Shown here: one piece after another, positions 85 through 64,000 of the stretch
Position numbering within the stretch: the first letter of the stretch is position 1
Layout: every line of letters begins with the position of its first letter
Source: Eledone cirrhosa
Taxonomy: Eukaryota
DNA: 64,000 nt
Direction: 5' to 3'
Assembly: GCA_964016885.1 (NCBI GenBank)
Contig: OZ024742.1
Coordinates: 289,788,001-289,852,000, forward strand
Made by a program: the position numbers and the translations under genes
Notes under the pieces: model-generated
Told to the model about the DNA's origin: nothing
Database searches by the model: none
Seen by the model: the letters and a program-made list of their open reading frames with translations, nothing else

Positions 85-380
85 TATATAGACAATATCC
101 CCCCCACACCCCTCACTGGAATGTGGTCGTGGAGGTGCCACGGCAAAAAAGCACCCAGCCCACACTGTAAAGTGGACATGTAGGCGCCACGAAAAAGCAC
201 CCAGCACACACTGTAAATGAGGTTGGTGTTAGGAAGGGCATCCAGCTGTAGAAATCAAGCCAAATCAGTTCTTGTATGAGCAAGGCATGGTCAGCCGACC
301 AGACACTGCCCACAACAGGACAACCCGTCTAACCCATGCTAGCGTGGAAGAACGGACGTAAAACGGTGATGAAGATGATG
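85..380 (+). mobile_element. Non-autonomous RTE-derived element or RTE 3' end (family A) with (GAT)n tail
   Basis: Near-identical copies at about 2495-2798 and 24130-24444; ends ACCCATGCTAGCGTGGAAGAACGGACGTAAAAC-(GAT)n, homologous to the 3' end of the RTE at 18919-18981. Confidence 0.8.
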
Positions 381-715: not shown

Positions 716-1188
716 CGACCTCACACACTTACACCTCTCCAAGACAATGTCACTGGACCAAGATCTTTGGCGCTACACAGTAATACAGAAGACCCGCCTT
801 ACCTAAGTACAAAGTGAAACCTACTACAGTCAGTAGGCACCTCTAACAAAATACACCCCCGTCCCACTACCCCCTCCCCATCCACACCACCCCTTTCAAT
901 GTAAAGTTATGTTGGTACCAAAACTTCCAGCCCGAAACAAATGAGGTCGTGTAGGTGTCACGACAAAAAAAACACACAGTCCACGCTGTAATGTGGGCGT
1001 GTAGGTAACACGGTAAAAACCTCCCAGTTGCACACTGTAAATGTGGTTGGTGTTAGGAAGGGCATCCAGCCGTAGAAAACCCGCCAGACAGTCCTATGCG
1101 AGCAAGACAACCACTCTTGCCTCAAATGGGAAAATTCCCGTCCAAACCCATGCAAGCGTGGAATATGGACGTTAAACGATGATGATGA
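716..1188 (+). mobile_element. 5'-truncated RTE LINE (family B) 3' end
   Basis: Matches about 40265-40860 (end of ORF plus 3' UTR); (GAT)n tail. Confidence 0.85.
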
Positions 1189-1604: not shown

Positions 1605-3472
1605 TACATACACATACATACACACATGTATATATACATACATATATACATACATACACAACTAGTTAGGAAATTACAAGTACAATCCATTAATGGAACA
1701 GTAAAAATATGTAAAACATTCCAAAAATTTTGCATCTAATAACTGCATATACACATGTACAGATACAAAGCATATACACAGGCACACATACAATAACATC
1801 CATATCTACACATGCATGCATACATAATCTACCTAGTTGATGTTGTGTAAATTCCAATGAGAGAGTCTTGTGTCTACGTTAGAAACCGACTCTCTCTCTA
1901 TTGGGAAAAAATTTGTGAAATCATAAAACCAGAAGAACATACATACATACATATATGGTGACAATTATTGACACATGGTGCTGGGCCCATGGTACCATGT
2001 GACGTCAAGTGCAGAGAGATCTGCAGATACAAAGCAATGCCTGTGCCGTGAAACTTTTATAGTGAGAAAAGGCACTGCACAAAGCCAGTCCCACTCTCTT
2101 AACCAAGATGATATTTACCAAAAAGAAGATCAAGTCAACATCATTGGATACCATCAGGGTTGCAGGTGTTCTATCAGAGTTTTCCTTCTCCTAAAATTCT
2201 GCCTTGACAAAGGCTAAGGGGTCATCTCTCCCGGTGATTTTGGATGGCCATTGACTCTTAAGAGCTCCTTTGCCCTTCGACAGGTTTTGTTTTTAGTCCT
2301 GCAGGATGTCCAAAGTCACCCTCCTCACCAAGAAACCTTGGTGGGGTTGCCAGTTTAGTCGCCAACAACCCGACCATGAGACAAGTTGTACTGGGATACA
2401 TGTTACCAGTAGCACATATATATATATACATACATACATACATACATGTATATATATACATATTTACATATATATATATACATACATACATATATGCAAG
2501 CTGAAGCATATAGACAATATGCCCCCACACCCCCACCGCAAGGTGGTCGTGGAGGTGCCACGGCAAAAAAGCACCCAGCCCACACTGTAAAGTGGACGTG
2601 TAGGCGCCACGAAAAAGCACCCAGCACTCACTGTAAATGAGGTTGGTGTTAGGAAGGGCATCCAGCTGTAGAAATCAAGCCAGATCAGTTCCTGTATGAG
2701 CAAGGCATGGTCAGCCGACCAGACACTGCCCACAACAGGACAACCCGTGTAACCCATGCTAGCATGGAAGAACGGACGTAAAACGGTGATGATGATGATA
2801 CATACATACATACATACATACATACATTTATACATACATACATATATATATATACATGGTGGCTGCCAACTCGTTTTCGAGTACGGCCACTACTTTATAT
2901 CCATGTAGGAGAACCCCTACCAATGCGCTGAACGAGTGTGACTTTTTAGTCCAGCCAGCGACTTGAAAACTCTGGTACAAACACTACACTTGTGACAATT
3001 ATTGACACATAGTGCTGGGCCCATGGTACCATGTGACGACAAGTGCAGAGAGATCTCCAGATATAAAGCAATGCCTGTGCTGTGAAGCTTTTATAGTGAG
3101 CAAAGGCACTGCACAAAGCCAGTCCCACTCTCTTAACCAAGATAATATTTACCAAAAAGAAGAACAATTCAACATCATTGGATACCATCAGGGTTGCAGG
3201 TGTTATATCAGAGTTTTCCTTCTCCTAGAATTCTGCCTTGACAAAGGCTAAGGGGTCATCTCTCCCGGTGATTTTGGACGGCCATTGAGCTCCTTTGGCC
3301 TTTGACAGGTTTTGTTTTTAGTCCTGTAGGATGTTCAAAGTCACCCTCCTCACCAAGAAACCTTGTATATACATGTATGTATGTATATATATACATATAT
3401 ATATACATACATACATGTATATATATATATACATACATGTATATATATATACATATATATATACATACATAC

Positions 3473-4029: not shown

Positions 4030-4169
4030 CATATATATACATACATACATGTATATATATACATATATATATACATACATACATACATGTATATATCTAC
4101 ATATATATACATACATATATATACATACATGTTATATATATGCATACATACATATATATATACCACTGC

Positions 4170-5072
4170 TGATGGGTGACAAAATCAGCAGTGGGGGAGG
4201 GTGCTCTGAAAGTACAGTAGCTAGAGTCGGAACTGGATGGAAAAAGTTCAGAGAGCTTATACCACTATTAGCCGCTAAAGGGTTCTCCCTAAAAATGAAA
4301 GGCAGGTTGTATGATGCCTGCATACGGACAGCAATGTTGCATGGCAGTGAGACCTGGGCATTGTGTGCAGAGGATATACGCAGACTAGAGAGGAACGAAG
4401 CTTGCATGCTCCGCTGGATGTGTAATAGTAATATACGTGAACGGCAAAGCATAAACGAACTAAGGGAAAAATTAGAAATAAGAGGGATCAGATGTTGTTT
4501 ACTCAAGAGAAGGCTACGTTGGTATGGTCACGTGATGCGCATGAAAGACGACAGCTGTATAAAAAAGTGCAGGGCAATAAAGATAGACGGTAGCCACGGA
4601 GTAGGCAGACCCAGAAAAACCTGGGACGACCTGATAAATTCAGACCTCAGACACTTACACCTCTCCAAGACAATGTCACTGGACCGAGATCTTTGGCGGA
4701 ACTCAGTAATAGAGAAGACCCACCTTGCCTAAATACAAAGTAAACCTACTACAGTCGTCAGTATGCATCTCTAACAAAATACGCCCCCGTCACGCCACCC
4801 CCACCCCATCCACACCGCCCCTTTCAATGTAAAGTTATGTTGGTGCCACAACATCCAGGCCGAAACAAATGAGGTCGTGTAGGCAACACAGTAAAAACCT
4901 CCCAGTCCCACACTGTAAATGTGGTTGGTGTTAGGAAGGGCATCCAGCTGTAGAAAACCCGCCAGACAGTCCTATGCGAGCAAGACAACCACTCTTGCCT
5001 CAAGTGGGAAAACACCCATCCAAACCCATGCAAGCGTGGAACATGGACGTTAAACGATGATGATGATGATGA
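4170..5072 (+). mobile_element. 5'-truncated RTE LINE (family B): RT C-terminus plus 3' UTR
   Basis: [10 protein letters not shown]...[11 protein letters not shown]...GRPRKTW is nearly identical to 39797-40356; (GAT)n tail. The N-terminus of the track ORF is microsatellite. Confidence 0.9.
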
Positions 5073-14400: not shown

Positions 14401-14625
14401 TTATATACCAACCCGCTTGGACCAAAGTATGACTGAACTTGGATTTGCAGACAAAAAGCGCAGCTCCATAATTCATAGTCTACAAATGGCTGCGATAGCT
14501 GGCACCTTCAAAATTTGCAAAACATTCTTGCGATTCAAGGGATGACAATTTCTTTTCTTTTACAACCTTGCCACCAGGAAGGTGGCCGGTCAAAAAAATA
14601 TACTCGAAATTAAGAGAAAGAGAAA
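11478..14625 (+). mobile_element. R4/Dong-like non-LTR retrotransposon (RT plus restriction-like endonuclease), 5'-truncated and disrupted
   Basis: RT motifs SPGPD, NYRPI, WLDYQKAFDSV, GIFQGDSLS and FVDN (catalytic DD altered); CRLC..H..C knuckle, RHD and PD..(VEISCP)..K REL motifs in 13787-14545; stops and frameshifts near 11790, 11840-11930 and 13759. Confidence 0.9.
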
Positions 14626-14818: not shown

Positions 14819-15087
14819 CATATGTAGGAGGTGAGTTTTATTGTAGTACAATAAAGCAATGCAGATATCGGATAAGAAGCACTCTACAGTTTGTGGGACT
14901 GGAGTATGCATAATATAAGATCAAAAATGCGCATAATAAAATATATGGAACTCCTTTAACCATCTTTTGATCTTATATTATGCATACTCCAGTCCCACAA
15001 ACTGTAGAGTGCTTCTTATCCGATATCTGCATTGCTTTATTGTACTACAATAAAACTCACCTCCTACATTAACTTGCTCCTTAACGG

Positions 15088-17550
15088 TTGAGCGCTTACT
15101 CTCATATTGGATACCTTTTGATGGTCCTTCACCTCTTCTTCTACAACATGGATTATTACAACATAACCAATTCAACTAAAGACATTCCTATACCTGGTAA
15201 ATCTGAATTCACCAAACTTCTTATTGAAAAAACTGACTCCTTCGTAAGAAGACTTAGATGGACAGCCTATTTCTATGACCAGCGCCTAAAAGGGAACTTT
15301 CATACCAAAGAACACAACTTCCTCGATCATCTTTTTAATTCTAGACGAAATCCTCCTTCCAACAAAAATCTAGCACAATTCGAGGAAGAATTAACTAAAA
15401 TTATAAAAAATCTTAAATTCAAGAGATACCCTTACAAAGGACAAGAGCACCTTGTAAATCTCAAGAACACAATCTCTAACCTAAATTCCTCAAAAAATGT
15501 TTTAGTCCACTCTGACAAAACCAATAACCTATATGGTATTTCCAAGGATAATTATAACAACCTTATCCTAAAGGAACTTAGGAAAAAGTATCGTAAAACC
15601 AACCATGAAAATTTAGAATGCATAAACCTTGAAGCCTATGAGATTATGTCAAAACTTGGCATTGAAAAAAAGACCGAACCATTCCTCCCAAGAACTCCGA
15701 GGATAAATCTCAAGGATCACAAAAACAATTTTCGCACTGAACTACCTGTTAGATTAATCGCCCCCTCTAAATCTGATCTGGGGGTTGTTAGTAAAGCCAT
15801 CTTGGATAGGATTATCCCACAGGTTAGTTCTAATTGCTCTTCTTTAAACCTAAATTTATGGTTTGGTACTTCTGAAGTGATTGGCTGGTTCAACAAATTG
15901 GATAATAAAAACAAACTAAAATTTATTCAATTCGATATTGCCAGCTACTATTCCTCCATTTCGCCTTCACTTCTCAATAATGCTCTATCTTTCGCACTTA
16001 AATATTCTGACATCACCACAGATGAACTTCACATCATCCTCACCGCACGTAAAACCATCCTAGAGTTCAACAACGAATATTGGACCAGAGCCGATACCTC
16101 TAACAACTTCGACATCACAATGGGAGCATCCGATTCATCCCAATTGACTGATTTAATTGGTATCTTCATTTTGAACTCTTTGAGTCGGAAAATTCCTCAA
16201 CTTCGCGGTCGAATTTATCGTGACGATGGACTCTTTACTATCCTAAATTGCAATATAGTTAAACTTAATATTATTAAGAACAATATACGTAATCTCTTTA
16301 ACCAACATAACCTAAAAATTGAATTTGATAATAGTATCAAACTAGCTAATTTCTTGGATGTATCTCTTAATCTTGACACTGGCCTATATTACCCTTACCA
16401 TAAAAACAATGAGAATCTTAATTATGTTAACTTTAAATCTAACCATCCTACCAATATCAAGAATGCTATAGTTAATAATATTGGAAATAGAATATCTAAC
16501 ATATCTTCTAATAAAAACATCTTTGATGCTAACGCCAATTACTATAATAACGCACTTTCTAAAGCCGGCTATCCAGATAAAATCAAATATAATAAAGAAA
16601 CAAATTCTAGGAAAACTTACAGTAGAATATTTAATCATAACCATTCCAATAATTTTAATAAAAGACCTAGATACAAAAACATAATCTGGTATAATGCTCC
16701 TTTCTCCATCTCTATTAATAACAATATTCCTAAATTATTTTTTAGTGCCTTAAATAAATGCTTCCCTCCCTCACATATCTATAGTAAAATATTTAACAAA
16801 CACACCATCAAATTTTCGTATTCTACATCCTCCAATATTTCCAACATCATCTCTAAACACAACAACAAAATATTAAATACTAAATCTCTTCCCTCCAATA
16901 TTGAATTTCATAATAACAGTAATAGTACTCCCGACGTCATTGTAAACCCTAGGCTAACTTCTGTAAACCCAAATGCAACGTCAAACACAACTTCGCTAAA
17001 TGTTCATAATCCAACTCTAAATCAAGAAACTATTATTCCTATTATTCCTATCGCAAACAACTTCTCCAATCCAATTCCTTCTATAGATAACACTAGATCA
17101 CTCATTAATAATCTCTCTAATTGCAACTGCCGCATTAAAAATAAATGTCCTCTCAACAACCATTGCCTCGATAAAAACTTAATTTATGAATGTAAAATTA
17201 TAACTAGCACCAATTCCTTCACCTATTTTGGCTCCACTTCCACCTCTTTTAAAGCTTGTCTCTATAATCATCATTCATCTTTCAAATACAAACTTAAAAG
17301 AACTAACACTGCTCTCTCAGAACTCATATGGTCCTTAAAAGACAAAAACATTAAATATAACATCTTTTGGAAAAAGATTTCTTCTGCATCCTCATACTTG
17401 AACAGCTCTCTATCTAAAATCTGTAATCTCTGCCTAAATGAAAAATTTACCATTATCTCTAACCTAGAATCCATAATAAATAGACGCTCAGATTTGTTTT
17501 CTATCTGCCTGCATAAATTCCATAGAACTTTTCACAAAGTATACAGTTAA
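15088..17550 (+). CDS. PLE reverse transcriptase-GIY-YIG endonuclease
   Basis: SDKTNN, QFDIASYYSSI, ITMGA, IYRDDGL and FLDV RT motifs; CNCRIKNKCPLNNHC linker; LIYEC...TYFGST GIY-YIG; C-terminal CNLC...C.H. The real start is probably the ATG at 15148 or 15121. Confidence 0.9.
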   Translation: MSAYSHIGYLLMVLHLFFYNMDYYNITNSTKDIPIPGKSEFTKLLIEKTDSFVRRLRWTAYFYDQRLKGNFHTKEHNFLDHLFNSRRNPPSNKNLAQFEEELTKIIKNLKFKRYPYKGQEHLVNLKNTISNLNSSKNVLVHSDKTNNLYGISKDNYNNLILKELRKKYRKTNHENLECINLEAYEIMSKLGIEKKTEPFLPRTPRINLKDHKNNFRTELPVRLIAPSKSDLGVVSKAILDRIIPQVSSNCSSLNLNLWFGTSEVIGWFNKLDNKNKLKFIQFDIASYYSSISPSLLNNALSFALKYSDITTDELHIILTARKTILEFNNEYWTRADTSNNFDITMGASDSSQLTDLIGIFILNSLSRKIPQLRGRIYRDDGLFTILNCNIVKLNIIKNNIRNLFNQHNLKIEFDNSIKLANFLDVSLNLDTGLYYPYHKNNENLNYVNFKSNHPTNIKNAIVNNIGNRISNISSNKNIFDANANYYNNALSKAGYPDKIKYNKETNSRKTYSRIFNHNHSNNFNKRPRYKNIIWYNAPFSISINNNIPKLFFSALNKCFPPSHIYSKIFNKHTIKFSYSTSSNISNIISKHNNKILNTKSLPSNIEFHNNSNSTPDVIVNPRLTSVNPNATSNTTSLNVHNPTLNQETIIPIIPIANNFSNPIPSIDNTRSLINNLSNCNCRIKNKCPLNNHCLDKNLIYECKIITSTNSFTYFGSTSTSFKACLYNHHSSFKYKLKRTNTALSELIWSLKDKNIKYNIFWKKISSASSYLNSSLSKICNLCLNEKFTIISNLESIINRRSDLFSICLHKFHRTFHKVYS

Positions 17551-18918: not shown

Positions 18919-21900
18919 ATCATCATCATCATCATCATCATTTTACGTCCGCTTTTCCCTGCTTGCAAGGGTGGGACGGGTCTTATTCAGCACAGCATCT
19001 CTCCACTCGTCACGGTCCCTCGTCATCTCCACCGTGAGCTTCAATGATCTGAGGTCTGTTCTCACCACCTCCGCCCATGTTTTTCGTGGTCTACCTCTAC
19101 TACGTCTTCCTTCAACTGGCATTTCCTGGCACTTCTTCACCCATCGGTCATCCTCCATGCGCATCACATGTCCATACCACCTCAGTCTCCTCTCCCGTAC
19201 ACTACATTCTATCCCTCTCAGACACAGTTTCTCTCTCAACACATTTATGCTGGGTCGTTCACGCACATTTACACTGCACATCCAACGGAGCATGCTTGCC
19301 TCATTTCTCTCCAGCCGTCGCATATCTTCTGCGGTAACTGCCCATGTCTCACTACCATGCAGCATCGCGCTCCTCACACAGGCATCATACAACCGGCCTT
19401 TCGTACGCAGGGAGAAACCCTTCTTCGTCAACAGAGGAAGCAGCTCCCTAAACTTCTTCCAACCCGTCCTTATTCTAGATACTATGGCCTCGGAACACCC
19501 TCCTCCCATGCTAATCTGATCTCCTAGGTACCGGAAGCTATCCACCACTTCTATAGCGCCCTCTCGCATTTGAAAAATGTGTCTATCAGTGCGACTTCTA
19601 CTGTCTAATTTCCCTGTACATCTACTGCATACATATTTCTCCCTACCTGTTAGTTTGCCTGCTATCCCGCTACATCTCTTGTGTACCCAGGACCTACATT
19701 GTGTGCATTTTATAGAATTTATGCCAGTTCCTTTTCTGCATATCGAACATGGCCATTTCCCTGACGGAATCAGGGTTTTGTCCTCTTTTCTACTCATCAA
19801 CACTTTTGTCTTAGCTAGATTTACTCTCAGTCCTCTTGCTTCCAACTGCTGTTTCCATAGCCGGAATTTATTCTCTAGCTCCTCTACTGATTCTGCCATA
19901 AGAGCCAGATCGTCAGCATAGAGAAGTTCCCATGGACAGCCAGTCTTAAACTCCTCTGTTATGGCTTGGAGGACTATAATGAACAAGAGCGGGCTGAGGA
20001 CCGAACCCTGATGTACTCCTACTTGTATCTGGAATTCCTCACTAAACTCCATTCCTACCCTGACTTTACTGAGAGTACCTTTGTACAAAGTTTGCACTGT
20101 CCTCACAAGCCATTCCTCAACACCCAGCTTCCTTAGAGACCACCAGATGACAGATCGGGGTACCCTATCAAAGGCCTTCTCTAGGTCAACAAAGGCCAAG
20201 TATAGTGGCTTATTCTTCTCTAAGAACCTCTCTTGCATTTGTCTCACCAAGAAGAGGGCATCTGTTGTACTCTTCCCAGGCACAAAACCAAACTGCATCT
20301 CATCTAGTTTGACCCTTTCTCTAATTAGTTGTGCTAAAATCCTTTCTGCCACTTTCATAACCTGATCTATCAGTTTTATACCCCTATAATTGCTCCTCTC
20401 CAAAGCATCCCCTTTACCTTTGTAGCAATTTATGAGAATACTGCTGCACCAGTCTTTGGGTAGGACACCACCATATATAGCCTGATTGATTATGCGTGCA
20501 ACCAGTTTAGTGCCTACGTCCCCTGATGCCTTCAGCATCTCAGCAACTATTCCCGATGGTCCGGCCGCCTTACCATTTTTCATTTCCCTAATCGCCTCTT
20601 GGACCCTATATTCGTCAATCTCAATAGCTGGTCCCTCTGTCGGATCTACCAAGGGTAATTTCTCTCTCTCCCATTCGTTCTCCACATTCATCAGTCTCTC
20701 ATAATGACATTTCCAGGCCTCCTTTTTCTGGTCATTCGTGACACTAAGTACACCGGCATCATCCCGGACACATTTATCACCAACAACATCCTGATTTGCA
20801 TTGACACACTGCCTTGCAATGTGGAACACCGCACGCCTCTGATCTTCCCGTCGCAGAACATTGGCAAACCTCCTACTCTCTGCCTCCCTGCGTGCTAAGT
20901 ACACCTGACGTCTAGCTTCTCTCTTAGTGGCTGTATATTCTTCCCTACTCCCACCCTTATTCCAAGCCTTCCATGCTAGTCTTTTGTCTCTAATAGCCTT
21001 ATCTACACTGCTGTTCCACCACCAGGTCACTCTCTGTCTGGTTGGGGCTCTGCTCCAGCCACAAGTTTCATCAGTAGCCTTCAGCAAGTTGTCACGTAAG
21101 AACTTCCAGTTATTATCTATGTCATACGTCTCTAAATCGTCTTCTTTTTCGTCATATACATCTTGAAGGGCTTTCCTAAATTTGAATTTTAGTGAAAGGT
21201 CTTTTAGCTTCCAGACCTTTCTTCTCCACACCTTCCTATATGGCTCATTCCATCTCTTGCTTACTGAGATATCACTAACAACTAACCTATGCTGTGGGGT
21301 ACATTCTTCCCCAGGGTATGCCTTGGTATTAGACACTATCTGCCTGTCCCGCTGCCTAACTAGCAGGAAGTCAATCTGGCTTATGTGCTCACCAGATTTG
21401 TAGGTTATTAGGTGATTGGCAAGTTTCTGGAAGTTTGTGTTGCAAATAGTCAATGTACTTGCATCACAAAATTCAAGAAGTCTCACTCCTTCTTCATTTC
21501 TTGAACCGTAACCATGCCCACCATGTACCCCAGTGTAACCATCCTGGAGCTGTCCAACATGACCATTGAAGTCTCCTGCTAGCATAACGATGTCTCCGTC
21601 CTCTGTCATTGTGGTTGTTTGCAAAAGTTGCTCATAAAAGCAGTCTTTCCCATCTTTGCCTAGGCCTGCTTGGGGAGCATAGACCGAGATGATTGTCAGT
21701 AGTCTCCTACCTACAACTAATCTAAGCTTAATTATTCGATTACTAACTCGAACTACCTCTATTGTCTTATTGATCCATTTCTCAGCCAGGAAAATGCCTA
21801 CTCCCCCTAACCCATCATCCTTACCTACCCAGAATAGCTTATAGCTAAGACGCTTGCCTACGACTAGTCTCGCAGAGGCACCTCTCCATCTCACCTCTTG

Positions 21901-22202
21901 CACGCAGCACACATCCACCTGCCTTCTCTCCAGCATCTCCGCTATTTCAGCAGATCTACCTCTGAGAGTGCCAACATTAAGTGTTGCAACTCTGAGATGC
22001 GACGTCTTCATATTTTTTTCTATGCTGTTTTATTGCTGTGCTGATAAGCTTTTTGGCATTGATACACTGGTTGGATGCCCTTCCTAACACCAGCGCCACT
22101 TTACAGCATGGACTGGGTGCTTTTATTTGTGCCACCAGCACTAGAGAGGATATCTTACTAGACTCAAGGGCCCTCTCTACCCCTCCATTTTACAGCATGG
22201 TC

Positions 22203-22204
<2 letters not shown>
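18919..22204 (-). mobile_element. Full-length, apparently intact RTE-clade LINE
   Basis: Single 1022-aa ORF, about 190-nt 5' UTR, and a stop codon followed almost immediately by a (GAT)n tail. Confidence 0.95.
18943..22011 (-). CDS. RTE ORF: APE endonuclease plus RT with inserted PHD finger
   Basis: TLNVGT, QE, GDFNGH, IDF and HRLV (APE); NYRGI, FVDLEKAFDRV, GVHQGSVLSP and YADD (RT); C4HC3 at 19618-19749; RLRWYGHV...GRPRKTW. Confidence 0.95.
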   Translation of the reverse strand: MKTSHLRVATLNVGTLRGRSAEIAEMLERRQVDVCCVQEVRWRGASARLVVGKRLSYKLFWVGKDDGLGGVGIFLAEKWINKTIEVVRVSNRIIKLRLVVGRRLLTIISVYAPQAGLGKDGKDCFYEQLLQTTTMTEDGDIVMLAGDFNGHVGQLQDGYTGVHGGHGYGSRNEEGVRLLEFCDASTLTICNTNFQKLANHLITYKSGEHISQIDFLLVRQRDRQIVSNTKAYPGEECTPQHRLVVSDISVSKRWNEPYRKVWRRKVWKLKDLSLKFKFRKALQDVYDEKEDDLETYDIDNNWKFLRDNLLKATDETCGWSRAPTRQRVTWWWNSSVDKAIRDKRLAWKAWNKGGSREEYTATKREARRQVYLARREAESRRFANVLRREDQRRAVFHIARQCVNANQDVVGDKCVRDDAGVLSVTNDQKKEAWKCHYERLMNVENEWEREKLPLVDPTEGPAIEIDEYRVQEAIREMKNGKAAGPSGIVAEMLKASGDVGTKLVARIINQAIYGGVLPKDWCSSILINCYKGKGDALERSNYRGIKLIDQVMKVAERILAQLIRERVKLDEMQFGFVPGKSTTDALFLVRQMQERFLEKNKPLYLAFVDLEKAFDRVPRSVIWWSLRKLGVEEWLVRTVQTLYKGTLSKVRVGMEFSEEFQIQVGVHQGSVLSPLLFIIVLQAITEEFKTGCPWELLYADDLALMAESVEELENKFRLWKQQLEARGLRVNLAKTKVLMSRKEDKTLIPSGKWPCSICRKGTGINSIKCTQCRSWVHKRCSGIAGKLTGREKYVCSRCTGKLDSRSRTDRHIFQMREGAIEVVDSFRYLGDQISMGGGCSEAIVSRIRTGWKKFRELLPLLTKKGFSLRTKGRLYDACVRSAMLHGSETWAVTAEDMRRLERNEASMLRWMCSVNVRERPSINVLREKLCLRGIECSVRERRLRWYGHVMRMEDDRWVKKCQEMPVEGRRSRGRPRKTWAEVVRTDLRSLKLTVEMTRDRDEWRDAVLNKTRPTLASREKRT

Positions 22205-22238
<34 letters not shown>

Positions 22239-22459
22239 TATTGACACGACTCACACACTAATACTCATGCATACAAACCACAACCACACATACCAACTCA
22301 TTCATGCATACAATCACACACACAACTCACAAACACATATATATATATACATATATTACCGACAGTACTGATACAAAATCAAAATCAAAGTCAAAATCGT
22401 CAAAATCACTATCATGTCAACTGTTGACCTTTCCCAGTCCAGTTCGGCTTGTATATAAT

Positions 22460-22860
22460 AACAATAACAATAATAATTGTTTGTTTACGCTGGTAATGGC
22501 GGTGGTGGATGGTGTCAGTGTGGTGGTGGTGGATGGTATCAGCGTGGTGGTGGTGGATGGTCAGTGATGGTGGTGACAGTTGTTGGTGCTGTAGTTGTTA
22601 TTGTAGTTGTTACTGTTGTTGTTGTCCTTCATTTCACTGCTGCTGTTGCTGCAGACAATGGTGTTGATGCTGTTATTGCTGTCGCATATATACAAATACA
22701 TACACACACATTCAACACAGACGATGGTGTTGTTGCTGTTGTTGTTGTTGTTGGTGTTGCTGCTGTTGTTGTTGTAGTTGTTGCTGTGTTGAAATCTGGT
22801 CGCATCCACAGAGATATACACATACACCCACATACACATATGTATATACACATACATACA
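22460..22860. repeat. (GGT)n/(GTT)n low-complexity tract
   Basis: Trinucleotide-rich sequence giving spurious poly-V/T/N ORFs. Confidence 0.8.
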
Positions 22861-23669
22861 TCAAAAGATAGTCAGCAGTATGTCAACAGGGGACAGGACA
22901 GCGACCTTAGAGTAATGTGGTGATGGTGGGGAGCGAGTGTAGGCGTTATTGTTATTGTGGTGACGGGGGGGGGGGGTCAGTGAGATGTTACAAGTTCATA
23001 GATCACTTCTCTCTTTTCCCCTCTCTTCAAAATTTTGAATTTATGGCCTTTTGCAATGGCGGCCAAGTATATATAATATATATGAAGCAAAGAAAAGAAA
23101 ATTTTTAAAAATATATATATATAACACATATATATCCTAGAAACGATCGTTAAATAATGAACTTTTTTTGTTTAATATAAGGAATTGTTTATTCATTATT
23201 TGTTTAATATTTTATCTTGACTCTGTATACCGTTTATCTTTCACCGAAAGTGGTTTTTCATTACATCTCTTCTTTCCATGATATCCGGAATACATTGAGT
23301 TCTTCATACGGATTGGACACTACCGTAAACTCTTGGTAGATTTATCTACATATATATATATATATATATATTTTTAAAAATTTTCTTTTCTTTATATATA
23401 TATACATATATATATATATACATACATATATATATATATACACATATATATATATATATATACACATACATATATATATATATATATACACATACATACA
23501 TATATATATACACATACATACATATATATATACACATACATACGTATATGATGGCTGCCCCCTCGTTATCGAGTATGGCCATTGCACGAGAAAAAAAACC
23601 CCCATAATAATAATAATAATAATGACAACAACAACAATAATAATAATATACATATATATTTATACACAC

Positions 23670-24444
23670 AGATTGTATGATGCGTGTATTTATACATGCA
23701 GACTGTATGATGCGTGTATCCAAACAGCAATGTTACATGGTAGTGAGACCTGGGCGCTGAAGGTGGAAGACTTACGTAGATTAGAAAGAAACGAAGCCTG
23801 CATGCTCCGATGAATGTGTAATAGTAATATACGTGAATGGCAAAGCATAAATGAATTGAGAGAGAGACTGAGCATAAGAGGAATCAAATGCTGTGTGCAG
23901 GAGAGGCGGTTGCGTTGGTATGGACATGTGATGCGTATGAAGGATGACAGCTGCATAAAAAGGTGCAGAGCACAAGAAGTCAATGGAAGCCGCGGAGTGG
24001 GGAGACCCAAGATGACCTGGGATGAGGTGATAAAAGCCGACCTTACCCAATTACACCTCTCAAAGGTGATGACACACGACCATGACCTCTGGCGTCACGC
24101 AGTAATACAGAGTACCTGACCTCCCATGGGTACAAGCTGAAACATATAGACAATATGCCCCCACACCCTCCCACTGCAAGGTGGTCGTGGAGGTGCCACG
24201 GCAAAAAAGCACCCAGCCCACACTGTAAAGTGGACGTGTAGGCGCCACGGAAAAAGCACCCAGCACTCACTGTAAATGAGGTTGGTGTTAGGAAGGGCAT
24301 CCAGCTGTAGAAATCAAACCAAAATCAGTTCCTGTATGAGCAAGGCATGGTCAGCCGACCAGACAACTGCCCACAACAGGACAACCCGTCTAACCCATGC
24401 TAGCATCGAAGAACGGACGTAAAACAGTGATGATGATGATGATG
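23670..24444 (+). mobile_element. 5'-truncated RTE LINE with family-A 3' UTR
   Basis: [16 protein letters not shown]...[11 protein letters not shown] with an in-frame TGA near 23811; the 3' UTR equals the element at 85-380. Confidence 0.9.
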
Positions 24445-25567: not shown

Positions 25568-27290
25568 TTAGTGGGATATTTGCATTTGTTTCTTGCTTGA
25601 AAGTAATTGAATATTTGGATCAAGCTTCATAACGCGCAGCCTTAATTGATCCTCTAAATGAGCATCTGTGGTTTGCGTTCTTAAAGTAGTTTTAATTTTT
25701 GTCATGAGAGAAAATGTTGACTCGCGTAAGTACTTCCAAAGCAGGAAAGTAAACGGTGTGCATGCTCTCGTAGGTGTGGATATTCAACAGCATTTGACCA
25801 GATTTCTATGGGATCCTTTTTAGCGTCAAAAAGGGATTTGAGGATATTATCTTCCCCCAACTCAAATAACTCAACTTGTAGTTCCGTTGAAGCCTTGGAT
25901 ATATCTACTAAATGTGGTTCAAATACCAGTTTCATAGCAGGTGAAAATCTGAAAATCTTTCAGTATATTCTTCTATTAAAGAATCCAAGACCCTTACATA
26001 TTCATCGAATATTTTATTTTCACATTTCTGCTCATTCAACATTTTTGCTAGCTCTGGGAAGTGTTCTGCAGATATATCCGAGCAAGAGAGTAATGTTTTG
26101 AAAAATGTTAATTTTTTTCGAAACGCTTGGATCTATTGCCACATTTCATATATATGCTTTGTTTTACCTTGCAGGCAAATATTTAAATTGTTTTGTTTTG
26201 TCATGATATCAAACAAAAATGCTTCATCTGATAGATCACAAAGTTTTCCTTGTTCTTGATAAAAGTTTAAAACTTTTATTAAAACCTGTCCTGTTGATAG
26301 CCAGTGAACCTTGCAGTAGTACGGTAGATCAACAATGTACATTTCCTCGTCTAAAGTTAGCATCTGCCTAAATTCACGATGACACATTGCATTAATGCGA
26401 ATATGGTTGACAATCGCAATTGCTCTATCCAGAGCGTCTTGCAAAATGGTGGATTTTGCTGATGCAAAATGCAGTGAAATGATATCAATTTTTTCAAGTT
26501 TAAGTTTTCCTTTTTTAATAAAGCAACAAATCTTTCTTTTTTACCTTTCATAGAGGATGCGCCATCGGTGCAGACACTGGCTAAATTACTGACATTTAAT
26601 TGTAATCGATGACATACCTCTCTGAAGTTTTTGAAAATGTCAACTCCGCAAGTTCTTCCAGTTAGTGTACCCAGCGCAAGAAGTTCTTCGTAACACTGAA
26701 AATCTTTAGTTACAGCACGAATAAAATATAAAACTTGCGCCAAGTCAGTTTTATCAGTGCTTTCATCCAATGCAATTGAAAAATAAACATCTTCATTTTG
26801 TATAATTGTACGAAGTTGCTCTGTTACATTTTGAGCTAATTTGTGCTGTCAATCTGTTATAGTTCTTCTTGAAAGAGGCAATTGTTTGTATTTATCAACT
26901 TTTTCTGGATCTAACATACCCACTTTAATTATTTCTACGTCACTAAATGGTTTGCCTCTTTTTCCAAGTATATGTGCTATTTTGTATAATATCAACTGCA
27001 GTGGAATTATTCTTCACAAAAGCACTAAAAGACGTCTGTTGATGATGCTTTTCATTTTTCAATTTTTGAAGTGCAGCTTGTCGAGATTCACCTTCTAAAT
27101 TGAAATATTTATGTTCTTTATGAGTTAAATAGTGTTTATTTGCATTCACTTTTTTCAAAGTAGTTAAAACTGTATTGCACAACAAACACGCCCATTTTAT
27201 CTTTCACAGAAATAAAGAAAAAATATAACCCCACTGTACATTAAATGTTCTGTTTTCTTCATTTACTTTTCTTCTCTTACAATTTGACAT
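25568..27290 (-). pseudogene. Frameshifted hAT transposase
   Basis: DESTD, CTDGA, HCILHQ, VHWLS and FGSTY motifs spread over several frames. Confidence 0.9.
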
Positions 27291-30200
27291 GATGGAGTAA
27301 AAACAAATATCAAATAATATCTTTAAGAAAGCATATACTTGCTAGCAATACAATAACACTGTGTACTAGTAAAACCACAAATCTACATTATATATTAAAA
27401 TGTTTGGAGAATAATTTATTTATGAAGATGGTCGTGTACACAAAAAATGAGTAAAGATTGGTAAAAAAATTCACGATTTGATTGGTCAATTAATGCTTTA
27501 AAATGGCTTCCCTTTTTACCCATTTTCCTGGTAAGTATATGAATGTCTCCTTTATGTTTTGTATAAATGAATTTAAAACAAATTGTTATTTGTAGTTAAA
27601 CAAATTATGTCTTTTGTAGTTTTTGATTTATTTGTTGCTATGTTGCTGTTACACTGCCTTTTACTTTTTCTAGACTACAATTACCTGTCCAACTGGCTTT
27701 TGCAATGACTACCAACAAATCGCAATGTCAAACTCTTAGCAAATATTGGCATCTATCTCCCAACTCCTTTTTTTACACATGGCCAATTATACGTTACTTT
27801 ATCAAGGACACAAAATGGACCATCATCTATTATAACTATGTCTAGAAAAGTACGAAACGTAGTCTATGATTCTGTTTTTCAAAATTCATAATTTTTCATA
27901 TTTTACATTTATATAATACTATATGTGTGTACTTTTAATTTTGATAGAATAAATTGGTCTTTAATTGGTTAATTTAACCAATCAATATCTATTTGATTTT
28001 TAACATATTTTTATTCATCACGCACAAAGAGCGGGTAACTTACTCGTTAATTAAAACAATATAACTAGATTTTCACAATGGCCGGTAGCAATACGAAACG
28101 AGACTGTCACAAGCACATTACAAGATTGACAAATGACAAGTTACAAGCGTCTTTTTTAGAACAGCCAATTGTAGAACGCCACCTGGCATTCTACAATTGG
28201 CTATTACCACCAGTAGTCACATTCATACCATTCTCATTTAATTCCATTAATTTTGAAATTGTCGTAATCTAAATGATAAATTATTAATACAAGAGCTAGC
28301 TTTTATGAAGGCGGCACAAGAAACTCACAGAGGCTGCAGGTTCCCCACCTCTGTTCTATACTGTCACACAGAGAGCTTTCTAAAATCTCGACATCACTGA
28401 TGTGGTCCCACCAGTGAACACCATGGATCCGTCTGAGACACATCTGATGGAAACGCTCCAATTGTTTAAGGTGGTGTTGATATGTGACCCAGGTCTCGCA
28501 GGCATAAAGAAGAGAAGAGAGCATACGTCTCGTACACCTTTACCTTTGTCTTCTTGCATATGTCTCGCTGACCCCAGAGTCGCCTTTTCCGAAAGCATCA
28601 TTTGCTTTCCTAATCCTGAGTGGGATTTCATTATCAAGGTTGCTGTATCGATCGACAGTGCTTCCCAGGTAGACAAACTGATCAACCACTCTAAGTCGTT
28701 TACCATACACATAGTTATTTGGCTCACTGTACTCCTTACCAGGGGCATGATGGTTTTCTTGAGACTGACAGTCAATCCTAGAGCAGTGCAAGCATCAGAA
28801 AATGCATTCAAAATGTGCTGCATATCACTCTCTGTGTGCGCGACAAGATCGGATTCATCTGCATACAATAGGTCTCTTATGATTGATATAAATACTTTTG
28901 TTTTTGCAGCAAAGCACCCGATGTTAAATATGCTGCTTGAGGTTCGATATTGGATGTAAACATCATGCTCGCAATTCCTGAATGCAATATAAAAAAACCA
29001 TTGCAAAGTATATGGCAAACAGGGTCGGTGCTGGAATATCCCCGTTTCACTCCATTTTTTTACTGAGATAGGCTCCGACATGTTACCTCTGACATTAACC
29101 CAAACCTTCATGTCGTCATGGAAAGACCTAACCAAAGCAAGGAACTTATCAGACTAATCAAGTTTCTGGAGAACCTTCCACAATGCATTTCTGTTGACAG
29201 TATCGAAAGCTTTTGTCAGATCGACAAAAACCTGATACGGATCCAAACCTTGTTCCATGCACTTCTCCTGGAGCTGTCTAGCTGAGAAGATCATATCAGT
29301 AGTGCTGTGTCCAGCACGAAAACCAGATTGACTTTCAGGAAGAACACAATCGGCAATGTGTGTCAGCAGACAGTCCAGAAGCACCCTACATAAAATTTTT
29401 CCTACGACAGAAAGCAATGATATACCTCTGTAGTTTCCACAATCATTCTTGTTACCCTTTCCCTTGTACAAGACCACCATTACTGCATCTCTCCAGTCCT
29501 CAGGTACGGATTCACTAGTCCATATCCTGCCAAACAAAGAGTGAAGATGTTGCAGAAGTCTCTCACCACCATATTGTAGGAGCTCTGCATGTATGCCATC
29601 CATACCTGGAAACCTTCCACTGTTCACCTTCGAGATAGCTACTGCAACCTCCACAAGCGTCGGTGGTTCTGCGAGAGCTACTTTCACAGGTTTTTCAGGA
29701 ATGAGATTGAGGAAATCTTCATTGACGACAGACAGCTGATTCAAAAGTTCATGAAAGTGCTCTCGCCACCTTCGTAGAATTCCTTGTGAGTCACAAAGAA
29801 GTTCCTTGCCATCCTTGCTGCGAAGCGGTGTCACCAGAGAAGACGGTCCATAAACTTCACGCAAGAGACTGTACAACAGCTTTGTGTTAATGGAATCTGA
29901 TGCAGCTTGTATCTCATCAGCCTTCTTACTCCACCACTTATCCTTCATCTGAGAAAGACTCCGCCTAACACGTGATTTCAGATCTTTGAGTTCCTTATGC
30001 AACATATTCTTCTCTTGTGGTTTTGCTGTCAAGTGACAGAGCACGCCTCTTATCAGCCAACAAGTCATTTATATGTTCATCATTCTCATTAAACCAGTCT
30101 TGATGTTTTCTCTGCACCAATCCCAGAACACGCCTGCCTACATCATAAACCGACTTTTTAAGGGTCGGTCAATCCTCACCAAGATCTGCAACATCCATCT

Positions 30201-36855: not shown

Positions 36856-36859
36856 GGCT

Positions 36860-39800
36860 TTCCGATGGGATGGAGCAGAGAGGTTAAGAGTTTAAATAAG
36901 CACTCGAAGTTTTGCGTAAAACTTAGCAAGTTTAACAAAATATATTTAAAAGAATATATATTTTCGTTTATTGTTAAATTATGCCCAAAATACGGGGATC
37001 TTATCTTAAACCTTACCTTCTCGCTAACTACCCAACATCCCTCCCTCCCGTCCCCACGCACCACCATTATTACGTGGACCAATCATAAGTCAGAGGCCCA
37101 TACTATCGCTTAACTGGTTGCTTTTCGATATGATGGATGGACTACGGAATTCTGGAGAGTTGAAGAGAGAAAAATCTGGACGCTCAGCGACAATGCCAAA
37201 GATAAAGACAAATTCACCTCGTGGACGAGAATGCAAGCACTCCTCCTTGTTTCGGCCGAGGATGGCTAACATAACCCTATCCCCCCCTGCCCCCCCACCG
37301 CTCCCACCCTCCAAACGCAATCCAAAACTTCAGAGTTGGTACCATGAATGTAGGCACCTTAAAGGGTCGCTCTAACGAGGTTGTAGAAATGCTTGAACGT
37401 AAGGAGGTCGATGTTTGTTGTATTCAAGAGACCAGGTCGAGAGGGTCTGCTAGATTCATCGTGGGTAAAGAACGATGCTATAAGCTTTTCTGGGTGGGAA
37501 ATGACAATGGGCTGGGTGGAGTAGGATTCATGGTAGCAGAAAAGTGGGCAGATAAGATAATAGACGTAAATAGAGTGAACGACAGAATAATTAAAATAAG
37601 ACTTGTCCTCAATAGAACTACGGTGACAGTAATATCTGCGTACGCACCCCAATCCGGACTGCCCGGCGTTATAAAAGACAGATTCTATGAGACACTGATG
37701 CTCGCTACCTCCCAAATAACCGATAGTGACTATATAATTATTGCAGGCGACCTAAATGGTCACATTGGACAACATTGTGACGGCTATGACGGAATCCATG
37801 GAGGCTATGGGTTCGGTACGAGAAATGAGGAAGGCTCCAGAATCTTGGAATTCTGTGACACAAATAACCTAACTATCTGTAACACTAACTTCAAAAAACG
37901 AGACAATCACTTGATCACCTATAGATCGGGGGAACACACAAGCCAGGTAGATTATATCCTTACCAGAAGACGTGACAGAGTGTCTGTTGTTAACACTAAA
38001 TTCCTCCCCCATGAAGAATGCACCTCCCAACATAGACTGATAATTAGCGACCTCATAGTCAGGACGAGACGTACTAGACAGCAGTAGAGGACTATCCTCA
38101 GGAGAAAAATATGGAAGCTAAAGGACCCCATAGCCAGAAATAAATTTCAAAGCATATTACTTGATGCTTTCGACAGTAAGGAAGAGCAATTAGAGTCGTA
38201 TAATATAGAGGAACAGTGGGAATTCCTGAAAGCAAACCTGCTGACGGCGGCAGACGAAGTCTGTGGCTGGAGCAGGCCTGTAGGTAGGAGGAGAGTAACA
38301 TGGTGGTGGAACAGTAAGGTGGAGGAGTCAATTAAGGCCAAAAAGCAGGCTTGGAAAGTATGGCGGGATGGGGGAAGTAGAGAAGACTATCAAGTGGCCA
38401 GGAGGGAAGCTAGGAGACAAGTGTACTTCGCAAGAAGGGAAGCAGACGAAAGAAAGTTCAAGCATGTTCTACAACGTGAGGACCAAAAACGTGAGGTGTT
38501 CAGGATTGCTAGGCAATGTGTCAAGGAAAACCGTGATATTGTCGGGGAGAAGTGTGTACTTAATGATGATGGCGTACTTGCCATCACTGACGCTGATAAG
38601 AAGGTAGCTTGGAAGTGTCACTACGAAAGGCTTCTAAATGAGGAGAACAAATGGGAGAAAGACAGTCTCCCCCACATCGACCCAATAGAGGGACCAGCAG
38701 TGTTAGTCGAAGGTAGTATAATAAGTAAGGCAATCAAAGATATGAAGACGGGTAAGGCGGCTGAGCCTTCAGAAATAGTTGCTGAGATGCTGAAAGCCTC
38801 TGGAACGGTGGGACACACCATGGTCACCCGGATAGTAAACCAAGTCATACAGAAAGGGGTTGTTCCGAAGGACTGGCATAGCAGCATCATCATTAACTGT
38901 TACAAGGGTAAAGGAGATGCCCTAGATAGGTGTAACTATAGAGGCATTAAATTAATCGACCAGGTCATGAAGGTCACGGAAAAAGTAATAGCGCAACTAA
39001 TAAGAGAGAGAATTGATCTAGATGAAATGCAGTTCGGGTTTGTGTCAGGCAAAAGTACCACAGACGCTCTTTTCATTGTACGACAACTACAGGAGAAGTA
39101 CCTAGCTAAAAGTAAACCCCTATACTTAGCTTTTGTCGACTTGGAGAAAGCCTTCGACAGAGTCCCCCGTTCCATTATCTGGTGGGCTCTTAGAAAACTA
39201 GGTGTTGACGAATGGCTTGTGAGAGCTATACAAGCCATGTATAAAGAAACAGTCAGCAAGGTTAGAATTAACAACGAATATAGTGAAGAGTTTAGCGTAA
39301 AAGTTGGTGTCCATCAGGGTTCTTAGCCCCCTACTATTTATTATTGCCCTTCAGGCTATAACAGAGGAGTTCAAGACTGGCTGCCCATGGGAACTCCTAT
39401 ACGCAGATGATCTAACGCTCATAGCTGAATCAATGACCGAGCTAGAGAAGAAATTCCAAACATGGAAGCACGGCCTAGAATCAAAAGGCCTTAAAATTAA
39501 CCTGGCTAAGACTAAAGTTCTAGTTTGTAGGAAAGAAAATAAGGCGGCGGTCCCTTCCGGGAAATGGTCATGCTCAGTGTGTAGGAAAGGCGTAGGTAGA
39601 AACTCCATTTTATGTCCCAAATGCAAAGTATGGGTGCATAAAAGATGTAGTGGGATCACAGGTAAGCTAACTAAGAACATAGATTTTACATGTGGCCGGT
39701 GCTCTGGTGCAATAAGTAGCAGCAAGTGCCCACAAAATACTTGCTCTTTCAATTGCGCAGAGGGTTCTATAGAAATAGTGGACAGCTTCCGTTACCTGGG

Positions 39801-40860
39801 TGACAAAATCAGCAGTGGGGGAGGGTGCTCTGAAAGTACAGTAGCTAGAGTCAGAACTGGATGGAAAAAGTTCAGAGAGCTTATACCACTATTAGCCGCT
39901 AAAGGGTTCTCCCTAAAAATGAAAGGCAGGTTATATGATGCCTGCATACGAACAGCAATGCTGCATGGCAGTGATACCTGGGCATTGTGTGCAGAGGATA
40001 TACGCAGACTAGAGAGGAACAAAGCTTGCATGCTCCGCTGGATGTGTAATAGTAATATACGTGAACGGCTAAGCATAAACGAACTAAGGAAAAAATTAGA
40101 AATAAGAGGGATCAGATGTTGTTTACTCGAGAGAAGGCTACGTTGGTATGGTCACATGATGCGCATGAAAGACGACAGCTGTATAACAAAGTGCAGGGCA
40201 ATAAAGATAGACGGTAGCCACGGAGTAGGCAGACCCAGAAAAACCTGGGACGACCTGATAAATTCCGACCTCACACGCTTACACCTCTCCAAGACAATGC
40301 CACTGGACCGAGACCTTTGGCGGTACTCAGTAATAGAGAAGACCCGCCTTACCTAAATACTAAGTAAAACCTACTACAGTCAGTAGGCATCTCTAACAAA
40401 ACACACACCCGTCCCACCACCCCCACCCCATCCACACCGCCCCTTTCAATGTAAAGTTATGTTGGTGCCACAACATCCAGGCCGAAACAAATGAGATCGT
40501 GTAGGTGTCACGACAAAAAAACACACAGTCCACGCTGTAATGTGGCCGTGTAGGCAACATGGTAAAAACCTCCTAGCCCCACACTGTAAATGTGGTTGGT
40601 GTTAGGAAGGGCATCCAGCTGTAGAAAACCCGCCAGACAGTCCACGCTGTAATGTGGCCGTGTAGGCAACACGGTAAAAACCTCCCAGCCCCACACTGTA
40701 AATGTGGTTGGTGTTAGGTAGGGCATCCAGCTGTAGAAAACCCGCCAGACAGTCCTATGCGAGCAAGACAATCACTCTTGCCTCAAGTGGGAAAACCCCC
40801 GTCCAAACCCATGCAAGCGTGGAACACGGATGTTAAACGTTGATGATGATGATGATGATG
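36860..40860 (+). mobile_element. Near full-length RTE LINE (family B), disrupted, with PHD finger in RT
   Basis: APE at 37344-38087 ending in an in-frame TAG; RT to 40356 with a frameshift near 39320; YADD; C4HC3 at 39571-39702; about 500-nt 3' UTR and (GAT)n tail; 5' boundary approximate. Confidence 0.92.
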
Positions 40861-46413: not shown

Positions 46414-46870
46414 TCATCATCATCATCGTTTTTATTTCTGTTTGTCCATGCTTACATGGGTTGGACGGGTCCTTCTCAGCAAGGCATCCCTCCACATTTA
46501 TGTCTTGTGCTCACCCTGTAAAATGGTCATGTAGGTGTCATGACAAAAAGCACCCAGTCCACACTGTAAAGTGGTCATGTAGGAGTCATGACAAAAAGCA
46601 CCCAGTCCACATTGTAAAGTGGTCATGTAGGAGTCATGACAAAAAGCACCCAGTCCACACTGTAAAGTGGTCATGTAGGTGTCATGACAAAAAGCACCCA
46701 GTCCACACTGTAAATGTGGTTGGAATTAGGAAGGGCATCCAGCCGTAGAAACCAAGCCAAAATCAGTTGTATGAGCAAGACATCTGACCTGGCTTGTCTT
46801 ACAACAGGACAGCTCGTCTAACCCATGCTAGCATGGAAAATGGATGTTAAACGGTGATGATGATGATGAC
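46414..46870 (+). mobile_element. Non-autonomous RTE-derived element with 42-bp tandem units, preceded by an inverted RTE 3' end
   Basis: GTGGTCATGTAGG(T/A)GTCATGACAAAAAGCACCCAGTCCACACTGTAAA occurs four times at about 46515-46715; (GAT)n tail; 46414-46470 is a minus-strand 3' end. Confidence 0.8.
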
Positions 46871-53041: not shown

Positions 53042-53136
53042 ATGTCTATAGCATTAATCTGTTATATGAAGTATTATTTTGCGGGTTGTTATTTGCAATA
53101 AGCCGATTGAAAATGCCCCAGATAAGCCGTATGCCA

Positions 53137-63560: not shown

Positions 63561-64000
63561 GCACGGCACAGTCTCCTCTGACCCTCCCTAATAACCGTGT
63601 GTTTTTCATCACAGACACTGAGTCGCAAGCACGTTGTCTGATCGACACCGGCGTGGCTTGTAGCATTTGGCCGCTAAAACTTCTCAAAGAGAAGCCCCAA
63701 CTCTCAACCGTCTCTCTGCAAGCAGTAAACCAGTCACCGATCCCCACGTACGGTCAGATTTCTCGTTCTTTGAACCTGGAATTGCGTAGAGATTTCACGT
63801 GGATCTTCACTGTTGCTGATCTGCCTTACCCCATCCTAGGCTCAGATTTCCTGCACCACTATAACTTGATAGTGGATATGCGCAGACGCCGGTTGTTGGA
63901 TGCCAACACAGAACTGTCTGTGCCGGGTACCAGATCGACTGTCTCGTCGGTCAGCCCGGTCTTCTTTATCGCTGCTACAGAAGATCCTTACCAATCACTT
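63536..64000 (+). CDS. Pol N-terminus (aspartic protease) in the -1 frame, partial
   Basis: Open from the GGGAAAC site to the window end: LIDTGVACSIWP...LQAVN.SPI.TYG...PILGSDFL. Absent from the ORF track. Confidence 0.88.

Follow-up and report, generated by a model that had tools for sequence, protein, structure and literature searches.

How can one short RNA element lie in the 5' untranslated region (UTR) of one family of RTE retrotransposons, in the 3' UTR of others and within a SINE, and which role would be compatible with all three places? The question is raised by the minus strand at positions 22045-22200 of a 64,000-nt window (the whole stretch of DNA that was analysed) from an animal genome of 3.0 Gb, whose repeats would seem, by impression, to be of an octopus-like kind, where a first-pass annotation had proposed a covarying pseudoknot module. 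The sequence that it quoted is present as given, and the module recurs at the sites that it named, with GGAAGGGCATCC at 232, 1056, 2652, 4934, 24291, 40605, 40717 and 46729 on the plus strand and at 22084 on the minus strand. The module consists of two parts, a tandem unit upstream, whose period is 48 nt and not about 42 nt as first given, and the GGAAGGGCATCC domain downstream.

The module in the window and in the genome

The module occurs beyond chance, since a profile search of 1.48 Mb (148 random 10-kb stretches of the genome) returned 133 domain matches, a few weak or old-family ones included, and the same 1.48 Mb reversed returned none. The density of the repeat in the genome is about 90 copies per Mb. 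The 1.48 Mb contain 146 RTE-type tails: the module stands just upstream of 97, another 13 directly follow an ORF, and the remaining 36 look by eye mostly like stubs truncated at the 5' end, among which no module-free body recurs. The random stretches, the twister loci and the window with its flanks together gave 126 unit arrays, of which 114 carry one to three units and six carry 11-44. Minisatellite expansions of 11-44 copies, their stems often broken, are found at L350, L354, L155, L339, L268 and L242. All young families examined (A, A', B, C and the SINE) keep at least one unit beside the domain.

The intact element of the window lies on the minus strand and belongs to family A, a young family whose N-terminal 270 aa are 99-100% identical in 142 scored matches. 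The element's single ORF of 1022 aa (18943..22011) comprises an APE endonuclease, a reverse transcriptase and a PHD-like finger, and its 3' end is a bare tail (18933..18980) that overlaps the end of the ORF, is followed by (GAT)n and carries no module. The ORFs of families A and B both match Pfam Exo_endo_phos and then RVT_1, with a single ORF and a short tail with (GAT)n; by this architecture, and by the UTR domain shared with RTE-2/4_EBu, they are probably RTE-clade LINEs. A PHD-like finger follows the reverse transcriptase in both ORFs (aa 755-798, 851-894).

Upstream of this ORF, the domain occupies 22049..22093 on the minus strand, recognised by its pairing register and by the same sequence in hagfish RTE and SINE consensus sequences. 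It contains a bulged hairpin, GTT-A-GGA / loop AGGGCA / TCC-AAC, with a flanking CTG/CAG stem (22067-22093), then a purine-rich linker and ATGCC (22055-22059), which complements loop GGCA(T). The 48-nt unit lies at 22096..22147, with stem 1 GTGC/GCAC (22129-22141), an A-run, GCACC (22116-22120) and a second half that reads CAG-T-CCAT-G-CTG-TAAA-GTGG (22096-22115). Farther upstream on the same strand are an A-lineage-specific hairpin, TAGAGAGG...CCTCTCTA (22142..22179), which belongs to a longer repeat of about 89 nt in older A copies, and the last 16 nt of a former first unit (22185..22200). The remainder of the 5' UTR (22202..23103), a poly-T junction and a microsatellite-rich leader, is common to other copies.

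The domain lies near the ATG in 29 of 30 family A copies, and in the window copy the module ends 43 nt before it. The module is not the 5' end of family A; it lies far inside a leader of about 1.6 kb. The full 5' UTR measures 1608 nt and holds 33 upstream ATGs, and four copies (L285, L287, L288, L011) begin at one common site; the window copy is truncated at about -1095 of the 1608-nt leader. The older subfamily A' (40 scored matches, its ends known from the seven aligned copies only) has two full units and, upstream of them, sequence that resembles by eye the conserved RTE/Ceph 5'-UTR domain of Kojima. Given this layout, young A would have lost the Ceph-like part and gained a new leader, joined at the poly-T inside the first unit. 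A reading of the partial unit at 22185-22200 with the following GAGGG as a deleted twister was rejected, because A' copies retain a whole first unit, of which this is the end.

Families B (37275-40838) and C (23690-24425), both on the plus strand, carry units, domain, linker and tail in the 3' UTR, so that the placement given by the first-pass annotation, 5' UTR in A and 3' UTR in B and C, stands. The family B ORF (37275..40356) has one stop and one frameshift, with no module in its 5' region, and is followed by a 3' UTR (40493..40838) of two units, domain, a 112-nt duplication of unit and domain, linker and tail. A B subfamily with this 112-nt duplication of the last unit and domain (40605-40750 in the window) is also seen at L233, L256, L284 and L196. 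The family C copy (23690..24425) is 5'-truncated and retains the ORF end, a decayed original tail, two units (24181-24282), domain, linker and tail.

The ORF-less copies of the window had been counted as non-autonomous. Those at 126-260 and 2546-2680 share the upstream 3' UTR of family C, and those at 946-1087 and 4873-4963 that of family B, so these four are 5'-truncated LINEs and form no separate family; elsewhere in the genome, a true tRNA-headed SINE carries the module (23 of 126 arrays). The elements concerned, all on the plus strand, are two family C copies reduced to the 3' UTR, each with two units and domain (88..364 and 2500..2784), an older family B copy with ORF end, 3' UTR, two units, domain and tail (716..1177), and a family B copy with one hybrid unit and domain (4132..5055). 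A further plus-strand copy (46523..46852) has four 48-nt units, domain and a B/C-type tail, with neither ORF nor tRNA head upstream, and abuts an inverted RTE 3' end.

Several other features of the surroundings may be recorded. Several module copies have an inverted RTE 3' tail immediately on their 5' side (41-70 and 46415-46520 in the window; L008), an arrangement that resembles twin priming or head-to-head insertion, and long fold-back palindromes with inverted flanking DNA occur at RTE 5' junctions (490-710 in the window; L018, L155:9000-9300, L195, L029). Other transposable-element ORFs, assigned by eye, lie at 11996-14545, 15085-17550, 26133-26848, 28380-31113, 32134-37082, 41365-42744, 50486-53053, 54868-58632 and 62526-64000; they include R4/Dong-like, Penelope-like, hAT-like, another RTE-like, Tx1-like, Helitron-like and Ty3/Gypsy-like fragments. 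ARAGORN found no tRNA genes in the window.

Pairing and constraint in the two parts

The domain fits the register G-x-GUY-A-GGA / loop AGGGCA / UCC-RRC-Y, which is 94.6% paired over 24 hand-picked sequences (7 from this genome and 17 from metagenomes, the search pattern having prescribed the inner three pairs in the metagenome sequences, where they are uninformative). One pair reads C-G in 12, U-A in 7 and U-G in 3 sequences. A rival register, TG/CA with GTTGG/CCAGC, was discarded at 72% pairing with no excess over shuffles. Downstream of the A-rich linker, GCC is found in 77 of the 87 strong matches of this genome and TGCC in the hagfish sequences covered; the sequence suggests a loop-tail pseudoknot of loop GGCA with TGCC, one that is without supporting covariation. 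The sequence of the conserved hairpin that had been noted downstream of the units was already printed in the portion of the Kojima 2020 supplement covered here.

The unit reads GTG-x-loop(GGTG)-x-CAC, A-run, GCACC, CAG-Y-CCAC-R-CTG-TAAA-GTGG, where the last segment is a second paired element per unit that had escaped the first-pass annotation. Among 338 near-full units, 26 rows were picked by hand for scoring; pairing reaches 78.5% in stem 1, 86.5% in stem 2, and 93.6% and 88.5% in the two second-half helices, and the overall score exceeds all 500 shuffles, a control that ignores relatedness. An H-type geometry of the first half, with two interleaved stems, a short loop 1 and an A-rich loop 3, can form, the stems measuring 4+4 bp in A, 6+5 bp in C unit 1 and the SINE, and 5-6+4 bp in B unit 1. 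B unit 2 has only two aligned stem-2 pairs (3 of 5 are broken) and C unit 2 a C.A mismatch, and many long arrays have a broken stem 1.

The covariation that had been claimed for stem 2 mixes registers and nearly vanishes in aligned columns, where the GGTG/CACC core (columns 12-15 with 31-34) has a single cell changed on both sides among 26 rows. Column pair 16-30 goes from C-G to U-A in B unit 1 only, where another pair is broken, and is unpaired in seven rows. The proposed AGG/CCT stem needs a register shift, and a complement of at least 3 bp arises by chance in about 35% of cases. TCATG/CATGA, offered as compensation, is CpG decay and not even its commonest outcome (locus-weighted, CA/TG 1.3 versus the pair-breaking CA/CA 3.0 and CG/CA 2.2). 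In stem 1, one pair appears as U-A, U-G and C-G, an inner pair as C-G, G-C and U-A but unpaired in 18 of 26 rows, and a change from G-C to A-U belongs to the CpG-decay class. The second half, CAG/CTG interleaved with CCAC/GTGG, is 90.7% paired; CAG/CTG has no change on both sides and is uninformative. The clearest compensation outside CpG is CAC/GTG to CTC/GAG in the last helix (an A-U/U-A transversion pair), which is probably one event, as each compensatory pair probably is a single historical event. Contigs of three runs held no further informative paired change.

Folding energy does not decide between a pseudoknot and a nested fold, because the ranges overlap: by our own approximation the pseudoknot reaches -11 to -18 kcal/mol in C unit 1 and -4 to -11 in A, and nested folds of the whole unit reach -16 and -10, respectively. 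Nested folding z-scores are unremarkable (-1.7 to +1.5). An alternative long hairpin may also form, in which GCACCCAG pairs either with YTGGTGT on its downstream side or with GTGCTGGTG on its upstream side; it competes in energy, but the upstream pairing shows no covariation. Altogether, steric considerations allow the H-type pseudoknot in A, in C unit 1 and in the SINE; aligned covariation, however, is nearly absent from its stem 2, which is broken in B unit 2, so that the sequences support the covarying-pseudoknot claim in part.

Constraint between families is clearer. Divergence at four-fold sites is 59% for B versus C and about 65% for A versus either of them, whereas the 26-column domain core differs at 0/26 and 3/26 positions, respectively, and in the units 7-15 of 49-50 columns have changed (binomial P 1e-6 to 6e-11). 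Between A and A', one of 47 unit columns has changed, against 12% of four-fold sites. Changes between A and unit 1 are commoner in unpaired columns (Fisher p=0.01); between C unit 2 and B unit 2, paired columns are kept no better than unpaired ones (p=1.0). Part of this conservation could stem from families trading 3' ends at a later time, yet such trading would not account for an identical domain beside a linker that has diverged. The description of a selected, tandemly expandable element at either LINE end is thus upheld by conservation far beyond four-fold sites, by arrays of up to 44 units and by the two placements, and the sequence patterns indicate that the module is probably structured.

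Probable relocation between LINE ends, and relatives elsewhere

The 5' regions of B and C lack the module. Among 30 family B upstream stretches, many of which are truncated near the ORF and about half of which share at least 650 nt, there are two domain matches, both in flank not common to other copies; neither of two full-length family C copies has a 5' module. The family B leader seems to be built of tandem monomers of several hundred bases (L201-L205, L210, L211). A midpoint-rooted tree of 15 rows, to which 40 fragments had been condensed at 95% identity, unites B and C in a single clade with a support of 99/100, apart from A and its tail-only relative. The C ORF ends in RPPMGTS where the tail-overlapping end of A reads RPTLAS, and so the old C tail seems to have decayed before the new 3' UTR.

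Occurrences outside the genome indicate that the domain is known as a sequence and is probably ancestrally 5'. It is printed within the 5' UTRs of the hagfish element RTE-2_EBu as well as of RTE-4_EBu and within their SINEs, in the part of the Kojima 2020 supplement covered. The domain described here belongs to the same type, with the GYGTYAGGAAGGGCATCC core, an A-rich linker or A-run and TGCC or GCC, in LINE 5' UTRs and SINE bodies alike; the hagfish domain follows a twister-like or other 5' module, and here it follows the 48-nt unit. The hagfish source text, in the passages covered, proposes no structure, describes no LINE with the domain in its 3' UTR and does not use the word ribozyme in the main text. 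Old decayed copies in this genome have GGAAGGGCATCC after a different 5' module that matches hagfish RTE-4_EBu (L169:5340, L345:6819, L352:9366, L329:5257, L232:5564, L165:4146), and at the three of its loci scanned this module matched no Rfam class.

Outside this genome, at least 120 metagenome stretches match a fixed 18-nt domain pattern, in which flanks and two positions were free to vary. A regular-expression sort of the 121 matches listed gives 85 of one short element type, 4 that follow a twister-like sequence and 32 others, which include tRNA-headed elements and a few chance bacterial hits; a profile of the 48-nt unit has no match in the 120 metagenome loci listed. The short element (L033, L038 and some 85 similar ones among the matches listed) is non-autonomous, about 250 nt long, with a sharp start some 29 nt upstream of the domain, target-site duplications, an RTE-like tail and first bases that complement the domain loop, and it is a candidate for a so far unrecognised 5'-processing structure. 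Pattern scans of viral and prokaryotic collections found nothing.

The SINE of this genome consists of a tRNA-like head (a weak match to Rfam tRNA, E=0.015), a CORE-like body, the module and a family-A-type tail, and thus has the bipartite layout of RTE-derived SINEs, a small-RNA head with an RTE 5'-UTR part and an RTE 3' tail. In the portions of Kojima 2018 (PMC5786205) covered, pieces of RTE 5' UTRs become SINE bodies, as in bipartite and Ceph-domain SINEs, and their function is only speculated upon. The conserved domain there is a different segment, the covered supplement does not contain AGGGCATCC, and no autonomous LINE with a 5' part in its 3' UTR is described in those portions. In the material covered on CORE-SINEs (MIR), the CORE 3' end, CAG...CCAT-CTGTAAAATGG, matches the second half of the unit by eye over about 20 nt.

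The 13-mer AGGAAGGGCATCC is in no main text searched, and the domain motif is absent from the searched supplement files of PMC5786205, PMC4758252, PMC4824008 and PMC9115989. Titles and abstracts yielded nothing on point on the structure of the domain, on 3' relocation or on a CORE-SINE pseudoknot. Within the literature covered, the fold proposed for the domain, the 48-nt unit and an RTE clade with a leader module in its 3' UTR are new, the domain sequence itself being known.

From the outgroups we infer that the 5' UTR is the ancestral place of the module and that it moved from 5' to 3'. In another host, L100 shows a module-plus-tail element inserted in an RTE ORF fragment, and the move to the 3' end would most simply have come about by capture of such a downstream element. 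The ancestor of B and C may have read through into, or switched template onto, a downstream module-plus-tail copy, which would then have been kept as the new 3' end while the element's own tail decayed. This ancestor could then replace its leader without losing the function of the module.

Candidate roles of the module

Three roles had been suggested at the outset, namely translation initiation, self-processing and RNP binding. Initiation at the adjacent start codon cannot explain the placements in 3' UTRs and in the SINE. Self-processing is contradicted by the ends of the copies: of 30 family A copies, 19 continue beyond both module and poly-T (four of these share one start about 1.5-1.7 kb upstream), three start in the poly-T and eight break at scattered points, and B and C copies are joined across the module. 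At twister-P1-like loci in this genome, by contrast, an unrelated flank lies directly 5' of the ribozyme in 9 of 9 cases. Self-cleavage is also unlikely because a cut in B or C would part the ORF from the tail, yet copies with ORF, module and tail are abundant (28 of 126 arrays).

Searches for known ribozymes agree with the statement of the first-pass annotation that the motif does not map onto the HDV fold. Rfam matched the complete window 170 times at E<=5, and none of the 150 matches listed, which are miRNA models that mimic microsatellites together with a few further weak ones, lies at the module; short scans of the A and C modules gave chance-level matches only and the A' leaders no ribozyme, and the same Rfam twister model does detect twisters in L064, L144 and L171. 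A descriptor of the HDV double pseudoknot (P1-P2-P3-P1.1-P4 with catalytic C), written for this analysis and run without a positive control, gave 0 strict and 0 relaxed fits in five regions. The module contains no hammerhead core and no twister core (UAA cleavage loop, UCCCAAGC loop, GAGGG strand).

Twister 5' ends of RTE elements (Schistosoma Perere-3, PMC8501958, in the part covered; RF03160) hold the same position relative to the domain in other animals, but the module differs from them in having neither a twister core nor an Rfam match nor a sharp 5' end. The HDV-like ribozymes of R2, L1Tc and RTE leaders are likewise pseudoknotted leader RNAs with a proposed role in translation (PMC6765202, as covered); the module could not be fitted to a nested double pseudoknot, and the elements that carry it are not cut there. 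In this genome, two or more RTE-like families start with a twister-P1-like ribozyme that scores below the Rfam gathering threshold (L171-L179, with an open frame of 1043 aa in L173), after which come a hairpin whose loop is of the TTAGCAG type and GTAAAAAC. These twister-bearing families lack the exact domain, their hairpin being only loosely similar, and count against necessity of the module.

RNP binding remains as the one proposed role left once self-processing and initiation are weakened, and a binding site is suggested by a module that is constrained, probably folded, uncut and indifferent to its position. Our preferred reading, to which we give about an even chance on the strength of these sequence comparisons, is that of a position-independent, probably folded RNA element needed for copying, brought from the 5' to the 3' end when a non-autonomous copy lying downstream was captured. 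The module would fold into a small RNA structure, to which the element's own protein or a host factor may bind wherever it lies on the RNA. The 48-nt unit would add one or two small pseudoknots or hairpins before the domain, and would expand as a minisatellite.

The Alu domain docks RNA on ribosomes for L1. Ribosome recruitment would be a more general alternative for the module as well, in which A is translated behind its 1.6-kb leader, the 3' copies of B and C act as translation enhancers and the SINE docks on ribosomes that are making RTE protein. It would suit a module that stands 43 nt before the ATG of A, behind the 33 upstream ATGs of its leader, and cap-independent translation is reported for R2, L1Tc and Perere-3, whose leaders are structured, in the parts covered of PMC6765202 and PMC8501958. 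We nevertheless consider it unlikely, although it is the best of the alternatives, as the spacer between domain and ATG appears free (about 165 nt in A' versus 43 nt in A, with 25 of 46 aligned columns different), B and C have an unrelated leader without the module and the SINE encodes nothing.

A slightly less probable possibility is that only the GGAAGGGCATCC domain is functional and that the 48-nt unit, a minisatellite, hitch-hikes beside it, part of the unit coming from a CORE-SINE 3' end and its apparent stems going back to one ancestral palindrome. The long arrays with their broken stems, the lack of covariation in stem 2 and the likeness by eye of the second half to the CORE 3' end CCTCAGTTTCCCCATCTGTAAAATGG of MIR1_AMi (in the material covered) all fit this idea, as does the domain without the unit in the 120 metagenome loci listed and in the hagfish sequences covered. 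Against it, four-fold sites are much more variable between families than the units are (P 1e-6 or smaller), a difference that is repeated between A and A', and all the young families examined have retained at least one unit by the domain.

Improbable by comparison is a promoter or enhancer motif that works at the DNA level from either end. Independence of position would suit an enhancer, and Kojima 2018 (PMC5786205), in the portions covered, speculates that conserved parts of RTE 5' UTRs bind transcriptional regulators; against this, the compensatory changes and the highly paired register of the domain point to a single-stranded structure, the module lies about 1.45 kb downstream of the shared 5' start of A, and a SINE of the Pol III type has retained it. 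That the module is a novel self-cleaving ribozyme, standing in for the twister of related elements, whose position in L064, L144 and RTE-2_EBu (as covered) the unit does occupy, is very improbable in view of the copy ends, the ORF-module-tail arrays and the missing ribozyme cores and Rfam matches described above.

If the preferred reading of a position-independent element is extended, RTE LINEs may need a second, pseudoknotted and portable docking site besides the 3' tail, which one lineage moved from leader to trailer and which left that lineage free to swap promoters; we put this forward tentatively, as something that is rather doubtful. If true, such a site would be a transferable module for RNP assembly or for 3' translation enhancement, half of it perhaps borrowed from a CORE-SINE body. 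It would also explain why SINEs mobilised by RTE retain a 5'-UTR piece, a question on which the covered portions of Kojima 2018 (PMC5786205) only speculate, for RTE non-autonomous elements and SINEs alike. The UTRs of RTE gene writers have been optimised via reconstruction and mutational screening (PMC13708176, in the part covered), and a defined fold for a domain that hagfish and marine invertebrates have in common would inform the design of their templates. This genome offers a natural experiment, in which one piece lies 5' in a young family, 3' in a sister clade and inside a SINE, such that its function would be separable from position, promoter and start codon.
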